Source of the DNA: Eledone cirrhosa
Taxonomy: Eukaryota
Direction: 5' to 3'
DNA length: 64,000 nt
NCBI GenBank assembly: GCA_964016885.1
Contig: OZ024742.1
Span: 273,048,001 to 273,112,000 of the forward strand
Positions 56,052-64,000 of the stretch are shown in pieces. Below the pieces are notes generated by a model. That model made no database searches. It saw only the letters and a list, made by a program, of their open reading frames with translations, and was not told the origin of the DNA. Every line of letters starts with the position of its first letter. The stretch's first letter is position 1. The position numbers were made by a program, and so were the translations under genes.

Positions 56052-56433
56052 TTGGAGGTGGATTGGCAGTATTGGTAGAGGGTCGGATGCAATGCTTGGA
56101 AGCATAGAGTTACCTCCCTGTATGATCTAATTTCAAATCCCGCCGAGGTTAACTTTGCCTTTCATCCTTCCGGGGTCGATAGAATAAAGTACCAGTAATG
56201 CATTGGGTAATTGCTGGCCTTGTGCCAAAAGTAGAAACAATTATTATTATTATTGTTAGGGCGGTGGAATTATTATTATTATTAGGGCAGTGGAATGGCA
56301 GTATCGGTAGAAGGTCGGACGCCATACCTTGAAGCATAGAGTTACCTCGCTTTATGATCTGAGATCAAATCCCGCCGAGGTTAACTTTGACTTTCATCCT
56401 TATTGGGTCGATAATATAAAGTACCAGTAATAC
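56052..56433 (+). mobile_element. Two tandem SINEs separated by (ATT)n
   Basis: 56052-56245 complete; 56284-56433 3'-truncated at the Dong junction. Confidence 0.9.
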
Positions 56434-58550
56434 GGACAGTGTCAACAAGTACATCCAATTTCTTCTCACACAATTCCCAAAGTGTTTAAGATCGTCCATG
56501 AAGAAGAGGTGGTTGATCGTAAGCTCTCCTTTTCCCAACTTGTATCCTGCTCTCACTTTTCGCAATATGACGGACAGGGGTATCAGGGCAAGGACAAACA
56601 ATAAAGGAGACAAACTATCTCCCTGGAAGATGCCTGTCTTTATCTTCACGCTTTCCAAGGATTCTCCACCTGATGTTAACTCTGTTTCCCAGGACTTCAT
56701 AATATTGCTTAATAGTTGTCTGATGTTATCTGCCACCTTGAAGATCTCTAGGCTTTTGGTTATCCAAGAATGAGGTACCATGTCGAATGCCTTTTTGTAA
56801 TCTATCCATCCCATGGCAAGACCAGTGTGCCACCTCTTGCAAGTCCTCATTACCATTTTTTCAATAAGTAACTGGTCTTTTGTCCACGGAACTTCTTTCG
56901 ACATCCTTTCTGTTTGTCCGGTAACAAGTTGTTTATGTGGAGGTGATATTAGATTTTCTGAGACACAATTCTTGTTAACAGTTTCCACATTACGGACACA
57001 CATGTGATAGGACTATAGTTGGTAACATCATTACCCTTGATTCGGTCTTTCATTACCAGAACTTTGGTACCTTTTTTCAACCACTCTGGTACTTCACCCA
57101 ATATCAAGCAGTCATTGAACACGGTTGTCAGTTTTAGGTGGAGGGATGTTTTTAATCCAATACATTAGCACACCATCTGGGCCCTAGCACACCAACTGGG
57201 CCTGGTGATTTCCAGTTGGTTAGTTTTTTGGCCTCCCCTTTAAGAGTTTTTACTGTGATACTCAAATCAGGTTGTTGGTGTGCTTGTTCACTAATCTTTT
57301 GAAATGTCTCAATCCACACTGCCTGACTATTATGTTCAACATCCTGCTCTCATATTCTACTCCAGAATGTCTTAATCTGTCCCGCCTCAGGAATCAGGTC
57401 GCTGCCTCTTTCTTTCCCTTCAAGCTGTCCAAACAACATCTTCTGGTTGTTGTCAAACATGCAGTTCTGTCTATACTGACTAACTCTGTTCTCATGCCGC
57501 CTCATCTTTGCACTTGTTGCTACAATACGTTGCTTCAGTTCCTCTATTATAACATTTAACTCTTTTCGCCTAGTTTTTCAATCTATCTTTATTATCTATA
57601 TTTCGTAATGTCCCATTAAGTATAACTCAAACTTTGCAATGTATTTTCTCATTTCCATAATTTGACCATTCAGTCGTTTCTTCCACCAAGGTTCTGATAT
57701 TTCTTGTTTGTTGTTTCCTCTTGTTTTTATCCCAAGTAATTTACTCACCACGTTTGCGGTTGCTTTGAGGATATTGTTCCATTGGTGAAGGTTCCTCGCC
57801 TCAAGGTGTGGGATGCCCTTGTTTACCTTAGCTGTTGTTTCTTTTAACTTTTTCCTTTACAAATCTTAGGTTCATAGGTTTGCCACTATCATTGTTCATT
57901 TCATCTACCACTAAGTTCAGGATATCAACCAAATATTGCCCTAGCCCGTCAACATTCATTTCCTAAATGGCCGTAGCTTTGTTCCAAATGTTATTTATTT
58001 CAGCATTCAGATCGTTGTCTGCTTCGGATGCTTCCTCAGGTCTCTCAACTTATTCACCTTCATTTCCCACTGGCTCAATTGCCTGATATACTCCACTCGC
58101 CATTTCCAACTTAATCTCTCTGCTCAGTTCGTTCTGTTCCAACTTGCTTATCCATCCATTAGTTCTTATTACACGAGCCTATTCGGCCAATTTCTGTTCA
58201 CCGATTTTAAATAGACTGATCTCGATCCAGATGTTATGCATCCGTTTCCTATAGACTTGTTTGGGGGGGGGGGGTTACTCTTCGAGTAACATTTTATGAC
58301 AGTTCTATTCAATTCTTTCGTCCAGTTGGTTCTTGTCCATTTCCTTCTTCTTCTTCCTCCAACACCAGCAGTATTTGGATGACAGCCCGCTCCCTGCTGC
58401 TTGGCATGGGACCACTTGCTGGATGAGAGTCTTTCACATGACGTTCCAGTCTCCTTTTCACCGTTATTCGAGCTGTTTAGGTTCGATACTTAAACACTCA
58501 TATGGAGGATTGGTGAATTTATGGTTACATAACCACCGATATTTTTAGCG
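56430..58550 (-). mobile_element. R4/Dong-like LINE 5' half (N-terminal region + RT start)
   Basis: RT segment closely matches 1445-1885; upstream broken frames read RTNWTKELNRTVIKCY, YRKRMHNIW, EQKLAE, NGWISKLE. Confidence 0.85.
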
Positions 58551-58885
58551 TGGCACCATAACGTTGTAGACGAAAATAAATAAATAAATAAATAAAAATA
58601 TAAAAAAGTAAAAATAAATTTCATTGTAATGTTTGAATGTCTGACCTAGTTTTTTTTCTTTTTCTTTTTGTTTTTCAAGGCCAGTAACATCGGTTACTAG
58701 TATGGTTGTTGCTGCTGCTGCTGTTTTTGATTTTAGCTACGCTAACTTAGTAGTCATAGCAACGAGGGAGGTAGGGGGTGTTGCGTTCAAAACTTTTGAA
58801 ATTAGTTTTTCTTTTGATGTTGCGTTTGTTTTTGTCTGTGTTCTGTTCTGTAATTGTTCGACTTGTTACTTATCAGTGCATAATG

Positions 58886-59245
58886 TACCAGTAATGCACT
58901 GGTGAATGGCTGGCCTTGTGCCAAAAGTAGAAACAATTATTATTTTACATCGCCGAGGTTGACTTTGCCTTTCATCCTTACGGGGTCGATAAAATAAAGT
59001 ACCAGTAATGAACTGGTTAATTGCTGGCCTTGTGCCTAAAGTAGAAACAATTATTTGACATCGGCATTATCGGTAGAGGGTCGGACGCCATACTTTGTAG
59101 CAAAGAGTTACGGCTCTTTATGGTCTGAGTTCAACTCCCGCCGAGGTTAACTTTGCCTTTCATCCTTATAGGGTCGATAAAATAAAGTACCAGTAATACA
59201 TTGTTGATAATTGATGGCCTTGTGCCAAAAGTAGAAACATTTATT
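58886..59245 (+). mobile_element. Stack of three partial/complete SINE copies
   Basis: Tail GGCCTTGTGCC(A/T)AAAGTAGAAACA repeated three times. Confidence 0.9.
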
Positions 59246-59796
59246 ATTTGACATCGTTCAAACTAAACAATTTGAGAGAATTTAGAGACACTGTGGGTAT
59301 GGTGTGGCGTGCGGTGGCTGCAGGTGCCTAGTGGTGCCTAGCAATGTGGTGAACGCCAGTTTGGGCAGTGTCTAGCAACGGGGTGAACGCAAGTTTGGGA
59401 AGTACCTAGCGTAGTACCTAGCAACGGGGTAAACGCCAGTTTGGGATCTCCCGGTGCTAGGCAGTTGGACGCAGGCAGGCGAGGAGTAAGGAGCAGTGAC
59501 GATAGCAGCGCTAGTGAAAAGAGCAAAACGATATGGGACTGTTGATACGAAGATAGAGACGGCCAACCGAGGAAGACGGATGTACAAGAAATGGTCTTCA
59601 AACTACCAGGCGAGGGAGATTGAGCGGCGCCTTTGAAAAGCGGTAAGTGAGATAGCTTTTTCCAACCACAAGCTATTTCGGCAACTGGAAACAGATCTGA
59701 CTGAACAAAGAAAAAAGAAGAAAATCTACTGGAAAAACAGAGAGGAGTCTGTTGTTTTTTGTTTTTTTTGTCACTTACCGCTAGACAAATCAGAGG

Positions 59797-60558
59797 ATGG
59801 CGACAAGACTACGGACGAGCGAAGCCATCAGGGCATTTACCGGGGAGCGTGATGTAATCACTTGGCTGCGGAAAGTTCGGCTGGTCGCAAGCTTGCAGAT
59901 GATAGAGGATGTGGTTGGCCTAATGGCACTCTACCTCGAGGGAGACGCGCTGGTACTCTTCCTTGAGTTGGACGAGCATAGCCAAAGAGATGCGCAGAAG
60001 ATTGATCGGCGTCTGATAGATGCATTCGCCGAGGGACCGTTGGCAGCTTTTGCTAAGCTGGCGAGAACCAGGTGGAATGGTGAGGGCGTCGACATTTTCG
60101 CAGCGGAAATACGGCGGTTGGCCATGTTGGCTGGTTATCAGGCGGAATGGGAACGCACGGTGCGGTTGGCGTTCATTAATGGATTTCCAGACGACATAGC
60201 GGTCAAACTGCAGCAAGTCCCGGGTTATAAAGAGATGGAAATGCGTTCACTGGTGGAACAAGCCCGGATCATAGCAGAAGATGCCAAAAAGAGTGTTGCG
60301 GCGATAGCAACTACGGAGGCTCAGGACACCTGGCAGCGAAACAGTGAAAGGGAGGCAACCTCGGCACGCGGTCGCCCGCGAACGTTTAGAGGGCGCTGTT
60401 TTCGTTGCCAGGGCCCGAACATGGCTAGAGACTGTAGAGAGTTGAGGCCGGAGATAATTTGCTACCGGTGTAAGCGACCAGGCCACATCGCTACTAACTG
60501 CGACCAGGGAAACGATCCAAGGGGAACTACTGCGCCGGTAGTTGCCCCTTACGAGTAG
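59797..60558 (+). CDS. gag: Gag-like protein with two zinc knuckles
   Basis: Intact 253-aa ATG ORF; CFRCQGPNMARDC (degenerate) and CYRCKRPGHIATNC; capsid-like F.GE.DV..WL, LYLEGDA, AFINGFP. Confidence 0.85.
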   Translation: MATRLRTSEAIRAFTGERDVITWLRKVRLVASLQMIEDVVGLMALYLEGDALVLFLELDEHSQRDAQKIDRRLIDAFAEGPLAAFAKLARTRWNGEGVDIFAAEIRRLAMLAGYQAEWERTVRLAFINGFPDDIAVKLQQVPGYKEMEMRSLVEQARIIAEDAKKSVAAIATTEAQDTWQRNSEREATSARGRPRTFRGRCFRCQGPNMARDCRELRPEIICYRCKRPGHIATNCDQGNDPRGTTAPVVAPYE

Positions 60559-60564
60559 CGGCGC
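60507..60564 (+). promoter_or_regulatory. Programmed -1 ribosomal frameshift signal (G GGA AAC + H-type pseudoknot)
   Basis: Heptamer in gag frame; 5-nt spacer; stem 1 60519-30/60538-50; loop GCGCCG pairs with CGGCGC 60559-64. Confidence 0.82.
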
Positions 60565-61001
60565 TGCCCGTGGTGGAAGTCTTCGTGAGGGGGAAGCCAC
60601 AGCGAGCCCTCGTGGACACGGGCTGTACAACGACACTGGTGACCGCAGGGGTGGTGCAGAGGTGGGGAGGGAAGAGCAGTGTAAGGGCAGTCGACGGCAG
60701 CAAAATCGAATGCCGAGGTCGCAGCGAGATGGAAATAGCGGTACGGGGAAGGAGGATAAAGCTTTCGGCCATCGTAGTAGACAGTGTGGTGGATGGGATC
60801 GGCGTGGTTATGGGCATGGACGCGATTGGCCGTTTAGGAGGCGTCACGGTGGACAACCTCGGTGTGTCGTTTGGCGTTGCTGCATCGGCATGCGCTGTGA
60901 GTGCACGTCATGAGAACCAGAAGGCCCACGAGGAGGAATACCCCGCTTACACTGTGCTGGACAGCAAACTTCCACGTGCAGAGAGACGAGGAGGAAATTG
61001 A
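60507..61001 (+). CDS. Retropepsin-type aspartic protease in the -1 frame relative to gag
   Basis: ALVDTGCTTT active site, VRAVDG flap, VVMGMD; frame open from the slippery site at 60507. Confidence 0.8.
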   Translation, partial: GKRSKGNYCAGSCPLRVAALPVVEVFVRGKPQRALVDTGCTTTLVTAGVVQRWGGKSSVRAVDGSKIECRGRSEMEIAVRGRRIKLSAIVVDSVVDGIGVVMGMDAIGRLGGVTVDNLGVSFGVAASACAVSARHENQKAHEEEYPAYTVLDSKLPRAERRGGN

Positions 61002-61436
61002 TCCTTGAGATCAGGGGGGGGGGCGTGTGGGTATGGTGTGGCGTGCGGTAGCTGCAGGTGCCTAGTGGTGCCTAGCAACGGGGTGAACGCCAGTTTGGGC
61101 AGTATCTAGCAACGGGGTGAATGCAAGTCTGGGCAGTACCTAGCGTAGTACCTAGCAACGGGGTAAACGCCAGTTTGGGATCTCCCGGTGCTAGGCAGTT
61201 GGAAGCAGGTAGGCGAGGAGTAAGGAGCAGTGACGATAGCAGCGCTAGTGAAAAGAGTAAAACGATATGGGACTTTTGATACGAAGATAGAGACGGCCAA
61301 CCGAGGAAGACGGATGTACAAGAAATGGTCTTCAAACTACCAGGCGAGGGAGATTGAGCGGTGCCTTTGAAAAGCGGTAAGTGAGATAGCTTTTTCCAAC
61401 CACAGATATAACTACAATCATTATTATTATTATGTT

Positions 61437-61635
61437 AAGGGCGATGGATTGGCAGTATCGATAGAGGGTCGGACGCCATGCTTTCCAGCATAGTTACGTC
61501 CCTTTACGATCTGAGTTCAAGTCCCGCCAAGGTTGACTTTACCCTTCATCCTTACGGGGTCGATAAAATAAAAGTACCAGTAATGCACTGGATAATTGCT
61601 GGCCTTGTGCCTAAAGTAGAAACAATTATTATTAT
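61437..61635 (+). mobile_element. SINE between (ATT)n tracts
   Basis: A-box TGGCAGTATCGA, B-box GAGTTCAAGTCC, consensus tail. Confidence 0.9.
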
Positions 61636-61973
61636 TATGTTGGTTTTGCCACTGTTGTTCATGTTGGGATGTTCAAAATTTTCTTTTGACCGGGTCACTA
61701 AATCAGTCTATTTGTATCTTTTGGTAGCTATTTCCTTTCTAGTCATGAGTAGTGGTACTATTACATTCCCTCTCTTAACAGAAGGTAGTGAGAGAATAAT
61801 GATGGTAGCAATGATGGAGTGGTCACTGTAGTGATGGTTTAGTGGTACTGTAGTGATGGTGTTGTTGCAGATGTTGGTTTGTCTCTAGCTAATTATTATT
61901 ATTGAAGCATAGAGTTACGGCCTACTGGTTAATTGCTGGCCTTGTGCAAAAAGTAGAAACAATTATTATTATT

Positions 61974-63390
61974 GGTCTAATCGGACGTCTTTTGCTCGCT
62001 CCCAGTAAGTCTTTGCCTGTTAAAATTAATTGTTGTTAACAATCTCTTTTTGTGTAAGGGACATAAGCCGTTAGACTTTGCCCTGTGAAGGGGAGAGTAT
62101 AATATTTGGACCTTTTGGCCCAATTATTTGAACATTTTACTTAAAAAAATAAAATTATTTTAAAAATTCATGTCTGAGCCACGCCGCCCAGCAATATGTT
62201 TGCTGTCGTGTGGCAACGGCGTAAAAGTTGAGAGGAGGGTTAGTGAAATTCATACAAAATACATCACCACAAACAACGAGAACAAAGACAACAACACTGA
62301 GAACACTAATTTATGAAAGAATTACCACACCAACTACAACAATAACAGCCTCAACCAAAATACAGACAACAGAAATAAATGACAACAAATACAACAACGA
62401 TATTAACACCACTAACAAGAAAATAAACAACGACAACACAAACAGAAACAATACAAATTGCACCGAAACCAACAACAACGGTGGAACCAAAAACACAACC
62501 AACTACAACAGTGATAACAGCAACAACGCCAACAACACCGTTTGTAGCAGTAGCAAAAGCAACAGTACCAACAACAAGAGCAGTAGCGGCAGCAATAAGG
62601 GTGCCGCTGAAAAATGAGCCACTTTTTTCTCAGATGTGTCCCGAAATATAGAGACAGTAGTAGTCACGGAGGAGGAGATGGCAGTCGCAAGAGCCATGGT
62701 GCCGCGAAACGACAACAGAGTTTCCCGGAAACCTCCACCCGATTTCTTCAAAGACTAGCAGCTGCGAACGGTGACTTACCGCACCGTACGCAAAATATCA
62801 CATCGGATGGAGAGAGCCACGGAGGCTCAAATCTATAAGGCCTTGCGGTGCGTCTAGGAGCGCAAACCCCACATCAGCCGAGGCAAAATGTACGCCACAG
62901 TAGACGTACTTTTCGACAACCTCCAAGCGCCGAAGTCTCACACTTTGGAAACTCTAAAGAGTGAGTAGATAGTCTTGGTGCCCTCCTACTACGGGCAGAA
63001 ATATGTGAGGGTCAAAGTGACCCAGGTCCCGTCCGGCATGCACATACCTTAGCTGACCGCGTCTGTACTGGCTAGAATATCTAGGAGAAGACCACCATAC
63101 TGCAAATACAGAGAATGGGAAGAGAGAACTGGTCAGGAATACGCATGCACATTCTAATACTGACAGACCAGTAGTGCATCGAGGCTATCCCCGATATCAC
63201 AGACCTCGAAGAAGAGCTCCAACTCCCTATAAGCATGGAAGGAAGGCGCCCAAAGTGCTATCGCTGTGAGCAGAGTGGTCAGCTGAGGGCCTTCTTCCCG
63301 CAGAAAACATCCAAGAAGAGGGCCTCCTCCTTCCGACGCCTGATCCGCTGCTACCAAGAGCAAGGCAGGAACAGAGGCAGAAGCCCCTTC
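61974..63390 (+). mobile_element. Tx1 copy F (5' UTR + ORF1), subfamily related to copy A
   Basis: Starts (ATT)n|GG; MEGRRPKCYRCEQSGQLRAF matches copy A ORF1; ends by fusion to a Dong fragment. Confidence 0.82.
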
Positions 63391-64000
63391 CATGCTCATA
63401 CCACTTCTCAGAATGTGGTAAATTGTTTACTTTGCATATATGCCAGTGGATCACGCTGCCTATCACATCATGTCGGCAGCCTTTATAGTGAGTCTGGGCT
63501 AGGTGTTTACACTCGGATACAATGTGAACCACAGTCTCCTCTCTCTATATCCACAGATCCTACATATTGGGCTAGCCTCCTCCTTGTAAATATGGTGTTT
63601 CACCCACTTCGTTCTGAGGGCCTGCTCTTGCGCAGCCATTAACATTCCTTCTGTAGCCTTTTTAAGGTCTCTTTTTAACCAGTTCCATATTTATGGATCT
63701 CTAAATTCAGTTTTCTTAAAGAAGGTACTATGATGGGTTTTTCCATGAAGGTTGCTCTTCCTCCATGTTGTTCTTTCCTCCTTGGACATCCCCTAGTCTA
63801 TTGTCTTCTCCTTCAGTACAATTTTGAGCATTGGCTCCCTACTGTTAGTCACGTATTTGTGTAGGTTGTTTTTCTCCATCTGAACACAGTCTTCTATGCT
63901 GATAAGACCTCTTCCACCTTCAGATCTCCTTAAGTAGAGTCTATCGACAACACTCCTATTGTGGAACATGTTGTAGATAGTCAATAGCTTCCTAGTCTTC
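63390..64000 (-). mobile_element. R4/Dong-like LINE middle fragment, runs off the window
   Basis: RLYLRRSEGGRGLISIEDC and HIVSECKHLAQTHYK..RHD match 2240-2845. Confidence 0.9.

Follow-up and report, generated by a model that had tools for sequence, protein, structure and literature searches.

At gag-pro sites of the SRV-1/MPMV type, a G GGA AAC heptamer, a short spacer and a downstream structure set the ratio of Gag to Gag-Pro(-Pol). The structures at these sites are compact, experimentally solved pseudoknots, and the viruses use two successive shifts. HIV-1 gag-pol combines the heptamer U UUU UUA with a simple, stable stem-loop as stimulator. The minimal pseudoknot of the coronavirus IBV, which has been verified by mutagenesis, consists of a stem 1 of 11 to 12 bp, a stem 2 of 6 bp and loops of 1 to 2 nt and about 8 nt. 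At the MMTV pro-pol site, G GAU UUA, re-pairing of the P-site codon involves a mismatch in the middle position. PEG10, an immobile host gene of mammals, is a domesticated gag-pol gene of the sushi-ichi type of Ty3/gypsy elements, and the GGGAAAC heptamer is tied to it in the literature. In the account given in PMC5009743, PEG10 frameshifting uses an identified pseudoknot, and G_GGA_AAC is among the heptamers on which eukaryotic ribosomes are most prone to shift. A 2003 survey, covering mainly Drosophila elements as summarised in that paper, found pol at -1 in 28 of 51 animal LTR elements.

Here, we analyzed a stretch of 64,000 nt from Eledone cirrhosa (assembly GCA_964016885.1, contig OZ024742.1, positions 273,048,001 to 273,112,000 of the forward strand), referred to as the window herein. 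The window contains a gag/pol overlap at which ribosomes likely slip by -1 on G GGA AAC (60507-13), at a hairpin 5 nt downstream, and enter the protease-polymerase frame. The register of the heptamer, the spacer, the hairpin and an open -1 frame that leads without an AUG into a DTG protease are plain features of the DNA, and this layout is conserved in relatives. From them we infer slippage itself, its rate and the role of the hairpin as its stimulator.

Like PEG10, the site has G GGA AAC at a gag/protease overlap, a -1 frame and a putative structured stimulator downstream; PEG10 differs in using a pseudoknot, whereas the element described here belongs to a mobile, multi-copy family of another clade, in which the hairpin is the supported structure. 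Unlike the SRV-1/MPMV type, the family has PR, RT, RNase H and IN in one -1 frame in its full copies. The conserved part of the cassette, heptamer plus stem-loop, resembles that of HIV-1, although the HIV-1 stem is shorter than the 12 to 14 bp seen here. A candidate pseudoknot at the site has the same geometry as the minimal IBV knot, but its second stem, read from complementarity, is not conserved. As in the animal LTR elements of the 2003 survey, pol lies at -1 and a classical heptamer is suitably placed between gag and pol; what sets the present clade apart from the surveyed elements is a DUF7047 domain, an RNase H of the RVT_3/RNase_H type, homologs in crustaceans and a cephalopod, and the occurrence of both split and fused gag-pol forms. 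The frameshift device is ordinary and well known and involves no new principle. Mildly new are the clade, its three heptamer variants and the split and fused forms found together, and the locus is a clear case, backed by comparison with relatives, of probable gag-pol ratio control through -1 frameshifting, in a retroelement clade to which the protein search attached no name or description.

The window copy and its family

The overlap lies in an element with the features of an LTR retrotransposon, namely two TG...CA LTRs, a polypurine tract and a gag with CCHC knuckles (Table 1). The LTR pair is 96% identical over a 300-nt repeat, a divergence of about 4%. Inside each LTR, a 34-nt unit is repeated in tandem about 2.2-2.3 times (59334-59410 and 61071-61144), and extra short matches to this unit in other copies suggest a variable repeat number. 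A clean target-site duplication was not found, as the 5 nt on either side of the LTRs (59287-59291 and 61405-61409) differ at 2 of 5 positions; later mutation may account for this, or recombination between copies may.

Table 1. Coordinates of the LTR element and of its gag/pol junction within the window
Feature	Position	Strand	Basis
5' LTR, 379 nt, TG...CA ends	59292..59670	+	direct repeat with 61026-61404
gag ORF, first ATG 59797 (residues counted from ORF start), stop TAG 60556-58	59797..60558	+	ORF 59785-60558, stop to stop
-1 frame ORF, 167 codons: N-terminal pol leader, aspartyl protease, short tail made by the deletion	60498..61001	+	ORF and Pfam
Slippery heptamer G GGA AAC, gag register	60507..60513	+	sequence reading
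5-nt spacer GAUCC	60514..60518	+	sequence reading; 60515 is A or G among copies
Stem 1 hairpin, 12 bp, G60544 bulged, 7-nt loop 60531-37	60519..60550	+	sequence reading and folding
Candidate stem 2, 60532-37 (GCGCCG) with 60559-64 (CGGCGC)	60532..60564	+	exact 6-bp complementarity
Private internal deletion junction, 7-nt overlap between two homology blocks	60957..60963	+	alignment to full-length copies
Polypurine tract, A then ten G, just upstream of 3' LTR	61013..61023	+	sequence reading
3' LTR, 379 nt, TG...CA ends	61026..61404	+	direct repeat with 59292-59670

The surroundings of the element are repetitive. It sits inside a cluster of short interspersed repeats, copies of which (65-95% alike, from families of 46-81 nt) occupy both flanks at 58877-59245 and 61448-61967. 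Two open frames on the minus strand (56365-57164 and 63499-63999) carry reverse-transcriptase-like motifs, FFMDD for example; they look like fragments of non-LTR retrotransposons and are unrelated to the frameshift site. The stretch 62225-62838 is of low complexity and rich in Thr, Asn and Ser codons, with several frames open on both strands.

Searches of the 3.0-Gb genome yielded 653 candidates with a 301-nt probe (40 scored), 1,372 with a protein probe (150 scored) and 964 with a probe across the deletion junction (40 scored), and the family has more than 1,300 candidate copies. The protein probe was part of P0056, a relative that is 50% identical. All 150 of its scored matches had 47-51% identity, which is consistent with the present family, and no other related family was found among them. 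The pol frame was open over 949-961 codons in 8 of the 150, whose matched part contained no stop, so the family is probably young.

Four 10-kb stretches that we examined held full-length copies of about 4.4-4.6 kb from LTR to LTR. Their gag spans 257 codons from stop to stop and is followed at -1 by a pol of about 960 codons, in which protease, DUF7047, an RNase H matching Pfam RVT_3/RNase_H and an integrase (rve) succeed one another. RVT_1 was recorded for most protein homologs of the family's pol, and the order PR-RT-RNase H-IN was found in the full-length copies, all four within the -1 frame.

The window copy measures only 2.1 kb from LTR to LTR. When the ends of the four full-length copies were aligned to the window, they matched 59291-60963 and 60957-61404; RT, RNase H and IN, about 2.37 kb, are missing and PR is kept; through the deletion, 60963 now abuts sequence close upstream of the 3' LTR. 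Homology to the window ends at 60963 in 29 other loci. Among the 40 scored matches of the junction probe, the window alone spanned the junction, which marks the deletion as private. The window copy, derived by deletion, is not an intact element. It is also not a Gag-PR element, a reading that we rejected since the copy ends after PR only through this private deletion. The original prediction had proposed a still intact control of the Gag to Gag-PR ratio. Its first half stands insofar as the cassette sequence is unmutated in the window copy, but the second does not, as the family's predicted products are Gag and Gag-Pol (PR-RT-RNase H-IN) and the window copy is deleted.

The gag/pol junction and its relatives

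G GGA AAC lies in the X XXY YYZ register of gag, which reads CAG GGA AAC with gag codons GGA at 60508-10 and AAC at 60511-13. The -1 frame overlaps gag by 61 nt and stays open into a protease with Asp-Thr-Gly at 60615-23, which Pfam aspartyl-protease models match (gag-asp_proteas, E 1e-6); both the register and the open frame into a DTG protease had been predicted and are confirmed. Translation of 60498-61001 gave no Met codon upstream of DTG. The gag product has two CCHC knuckles near its C-terminus (Pfam zf-CCHC, E 3e-5), and its N-terminus aligns in kind with the Gag of fused relatives. GGGAAAC occurs 13 times in the window against 7.2 expected, and the heptamer on its own is not more than chance.

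The place of the shift can be narrowed by comparison with elements in which Gag and Pol are fused. In these proteins, the region after the last CCHC knuckle runs into a peptide that resembles the one encoded over stem 1 in the window's -1 frame, KGNYCAGSCPLR, with KGYCATGCPLRP in P0056 as an example of its counterpart in a single-ORF Gag-Pol. Since the -1 frame opens at 60498 and the stem-1 peptide is matched in fused relatives, the shift is placed before about 60520, within about 22 nt. The heptamer falls inside this stretch.

Upon comparison of 57 distinct genomic copies, we found that 54 are without an indel across 60498-60564, so the -1 offset between gag and pol is the family norm and not a private indel. 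The heptamer GGGAAAC is kept in 53 of the 57 and the gag TAG in 54. These counts weigh on the alternative in which nothing is recoded, the offset being decay or pol being made through its own start, splicing or polymerase slippage on GGGAAA. Such a reading agrees with the defective state of the window copy and with the existence of single-ORF relatives, from which it follows that a 1-nt change can convert one arrangement into the other, but it is at odds with an offset common to 54 of 57 copies and to four distant relatives with long open gag and pol, and with a -1 frame that has no Met codon before DTG. Public-run contigs, which are of unlisted kind and drop rare variants, also listed no 1-nt insertion or deletion at the heptamer; none of the runs with the sequence was listed as RNA, and one public run from a second organism (X5) covers 60664-60700 only. 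We consider this alternative highly improbable. A +1 shift or stop-codon readthrough was rejected because pol lies at -1, and internal initiation because no AUG precedes DTG.

Ribosomal slippage at the heptamer is also supported by relatives for which DNA was found, namely a metagenome contig (L036) and four loci on contigs filed under bacterial MAGs (L067, L068, L070 and L071), whose Pol is 38-47% identical. Together with the present family, these make only six lineages with DNA. Pol lies at -1 to a CCHC-bearing gag in L036, L068, L070 and L071; in L067, gag is broken and pol is at -1 to a CCHC-bearing frame. All five carry an in-register heptamer at the homologous spot, which reads GGGAAAC in L036 and L070, AAAAAAC in L068 and GGAAAAC in L067 and L071. 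Thus, across lineages the A-site AAAC is constant while the P-site triplet varies, and this variation includes G GAA AAC. The latter is not a canonical X XXY YYZ heptamer, and both of its carriers are on contigs with broken frames. Re-pairing on it would need a G-U pair in the middle position, a middle mismatch like that at MMTV pro-pol, where the A-site codon differs.

The four MAG-filed loci with a junction are part of eight (L067-L074) returned by the scan of genome contigs. The junction is absent from the other four (L069 and L072-L074), and a DUF7047 search of those four MAG records added none. L036 was the only relative in the scan of metagenome contigs, and the scan of viral contigs returned none. 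The contigs of L067-L074, one of which is 25 kb long and has three matches, encode relatives of animal-type LTR retroelements and are most likely mis-binned eukaryotic DNA.

At the protein level, 709 homologs were found at E 0.001. The best 120 of these (P0001-P0120) include named proteins from two crustaceans and a cephalopod along with many unnamed ones; all 120 are hypothetical or uncharacterized, and the search gave no name or description for the clade. Most of the best 120 are pol-only, with about 950 aa, and most come from contigs whose length, about 3-5 kb, is that of a complete element. By a hand count based on the position of DTG, about 28 of the homologs listed are single-ORF Gag-Pol proteins of roughly 1,100-1,240 aa. 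G-K-(R/L/P), the reading expected from GGN AAA Cnn, was found in all 13 pol-only homologs whose ORF extends to the site and in about 5 of the approximately 28 fused forms (hand counts on the listings). The clade offers a natural comparison between split forms with heptamer and hairpin and fused single-ORF forms that would not need them. In a protein atlas, the search led to a DUF7047 cluster of its own and then to generic retroviral, Pao and gypsy clusters, which we treat as leads only; the RNase H of the clade matches Pfam RVT_3/RNase_H, as opposed to the RT_RNaseH models listed for the gypsy-type clusters. A PDB sequence search with Pol gave no match at E 0.001.

Four elements of a canonical -1 site are present in this family: an in-register heptamer, a 5-nt spacer followed by a stable structure, an overlapping -1 gene without its own start, and conservation among relatives. 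In the mechanism that we propose, the hairpin would pause ribosomes whose P site holds GGA and whose A site holds AAC, and, following the tandem-slippage model, the tRNA-Gly and tRNA-Asn paired there would shift to GGG AAA. This would give Gag through the Asn codon at 60511-13, followed by the -1 frame read from 60513 on. Full-length copies are predicted to make Gag and a minority of Gag-Pol of about 1,200 aa, a size that matches the fused Gag-Pol of related single-ORF elements. On the window copy, which lacks RT, RNase H and IN, a shifted ribosome would terminate at 61001, beyond the protease. For annotation, gag and pol throughout this family should be joined by a -1 shift at the GGGAAAC heptamer.

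The hairpin downstream of the heptamer

The predicted stem of 12 bp with one bulge, set 5 nt behind the heptamer, was found as described. Its arms are AAGGGGAACUAC (60519-30) and GUAGUUgCCCCUU (60538-50), and the minimum-energy fold extends it by the pairs U60531-G60537 and G60532-C60536. This gives a stem of 12-14 bp with a computed energy of -15.5 kcal/mol as drawn and -18.6 kcal/mol when extended. The 64-nt fold has a z of -2.3, and 4 of 200 shuffles were at least as stable. For a full-length copy, we compared the 40 nt behind the heptamer with 1,155 windows of that size from the coding region, among which they fell in the top 0.26%. The hairpin is more than chance.

The same test was applied to all six lineages by ranking the 40 nt that start 4 nt after the heptamer against all windows of that size in the element's own coding region. 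The ranks were 0.26%, 0.24%, 1.9%, 0.18%, 0.17% and 0.14%, with a Fisher combined p of 2.6e-10 for 40-nt windows and 2.2e-7 for 50-nt windows. Hence, each element has few if any local folds more stable than its hairpin. In all six, its first paired base lies +5 to +7 and its last +37 to +42 after the heptamer, and the minimum-energy fold contains at least nine nested pairs. A six-cassette MAFFT alignment put the arms out of register, and the helices were therefore tabulated from the folds. Apart from a shared G-run and C-run, the arms differ, with two to three standard pair types at 8 of the first 9 pair positions. For the relatives' 60-nt folds, mononucleotide shuffles mostly gave weak z-scores (+0.75 to -2.5), an effect of the G+C-rich sequences; the relatives' hairpins are supported by position and rank and not by the shuffles.

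Two reading frames run through the hairpin, as does a conserved Cys-Ala peptide motif also found in single-ORF relatives, so part of the hairpin's sequence conservation is at the protein level. This raises the alternative that overlapping frames coding for a conserved peptide produce the hairpin as a by-product, any slippage being due to the heptamer alone or to another signal. Two observations fit: relatives without need of a frameshift retain Cys-Ala-(Gly/Ser) over the loop, and in six of six lineages the G-run in the 5' arm codes for Gly when read at -1. The 3' arm argues otherwise, for the peptides that it encodes are unlike one another in all six (CPL, FHP, LQS, FLP, GGP and FSH), yet the pairing is kept, which means that a shared peptide does not explain the pairing. 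A by-product of coding would also not account for a hairpin at or near the top of local fold stability in each element, nor for a heptamer-hairpin distance fixed at 5-7 nt. We regard this alternative as improbable, and the comparison of the six sequences points to a constraint on the hairpin at the RNA level.

Within the genome, the original prediction had looked to covariation among copies, and here it found no backing. Two sets of 30 copies, 92-100% alike where compared, showed no covariation; their changes are scattered singletons plus two shared variants. One of the shared variants is in the spacer (60515, A to G in 6 of 30 copies) and the other lies where the partner strand of stem 2 begins (60559, with A for C in 7 of 30). 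None of the 30 copies showed a shared variant in the heptamer or in stem 1. An Rfam scan of 59200-61500 with E up to 10 returned five chance-level matches (E 1.8-6.1) and no frameshift element.

A candidate second stem

The loop GCGCCG had been noted as complementary to CGGCGC at 60559-64, and 60559-64 is indeed the exact reverse complement of 60532-37. On this basis, the stimulator might be an H-type pseudoknot resembling the minimal IBV knot, with stem 1 (60519-30/60538-50) and stem 2 (60532-37/60559-64) connected by loops of 1 nt (60531) and 8 nt (60551-58), lengths that match those tolerated in IBV-type knots. The gag stop TAG is situated between stem 1 and the stem-2 partner.

Several results speak for such a knot. 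The complementarity is exact, 6 bp long and G+C-rich, and when the 45 nt downstream were replaced by 2,000 dinucleotide shuffles, 98.8% of these did worse (p 0.012). When real 45-nt windows of three full copies were used instead, 2.3-4.5% complemented the loop equally well, the windows of the true site included. Against chance, stem 2 is borderline. We also made a rough sum of the pseudoknot energy from the stem-1 helix (-20.5 kcal/mol) and the stem-2 stacks (about -14.9, the duplex of -10.8 less its initiation term), using pseudoknot penalties of 7-9 kcal/mol plus 0.3 per unpaired base. The resulting estimate of about -24 to -26 kcal/mol compares with -24.8 for the nested minimum and -15.5 to -18.6 for stem 1 alone. 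Lastly, among three listed loci with pol open over 961 aa, none of the three differs at 60559; the two that are changed in the stretch differ at 60515.

The knot nevertheless meets opposition from the fold itself and from the relatives. Stem 2 would form at the expense of the 2-bp extension of stem 1 and of the 3' hairpin in the minimum-energy fold, and this nested fold, in which stem 1 is extended and the 3' strand of stem 2 lies in a small hairpin, is about as stable as the knot. The loop sequence UGCGC is set by the conserved Cys-Ala codon pair, which means that GCGC-type partners arise easily. The A at 60559 in 7 of 30 copies, which also accounts for 8,042 of 9,682 of the contig depth in public run X1, brings stem 2 down to 5 bp, and no compensatory changes for stem 2 were seen among the genomic copies examined. 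In none of the five relatives was loop-to-downstream pairing significant (p 0.38, 0.31, 0.56, 0.30 and 0.09), nor was conservation or covariation of stem 2 found among them. The modeled pseudoknot is feasible but not favoured, and we hold it to be a doubtful candidate for the stimulator. The prediction of a complete -1 cassette with an H-type pseudoknot can thus be divided. Its frameshift part is well supported by relatives, through a -1 pol and the positions of heptamer and hairpin, while the knot part comes down to a 6-bp complementarity in this family only. The outcome was equally split for structural conservation, as the position of the stem-1 hairpin recurs in five relatives and stem 2 does not.

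Tentatively, these comparisons could be joined into a history of the unnamed DUF7047 clade, LTR retroelements of about 4-4.5 kb with homologs in crustaceans and a cephalopod. Its members may share an old, position-locked frameshift module, with a constant A-site AAAC, a P-site triplet of GGG, AAA or the non-canonical GGA, and a hairpin that always spans +5 to +42. Many lineages would then have lost this module by gag-pol fusion, and the family described here may have added a second stem to give an IBV-like pseudoknot.
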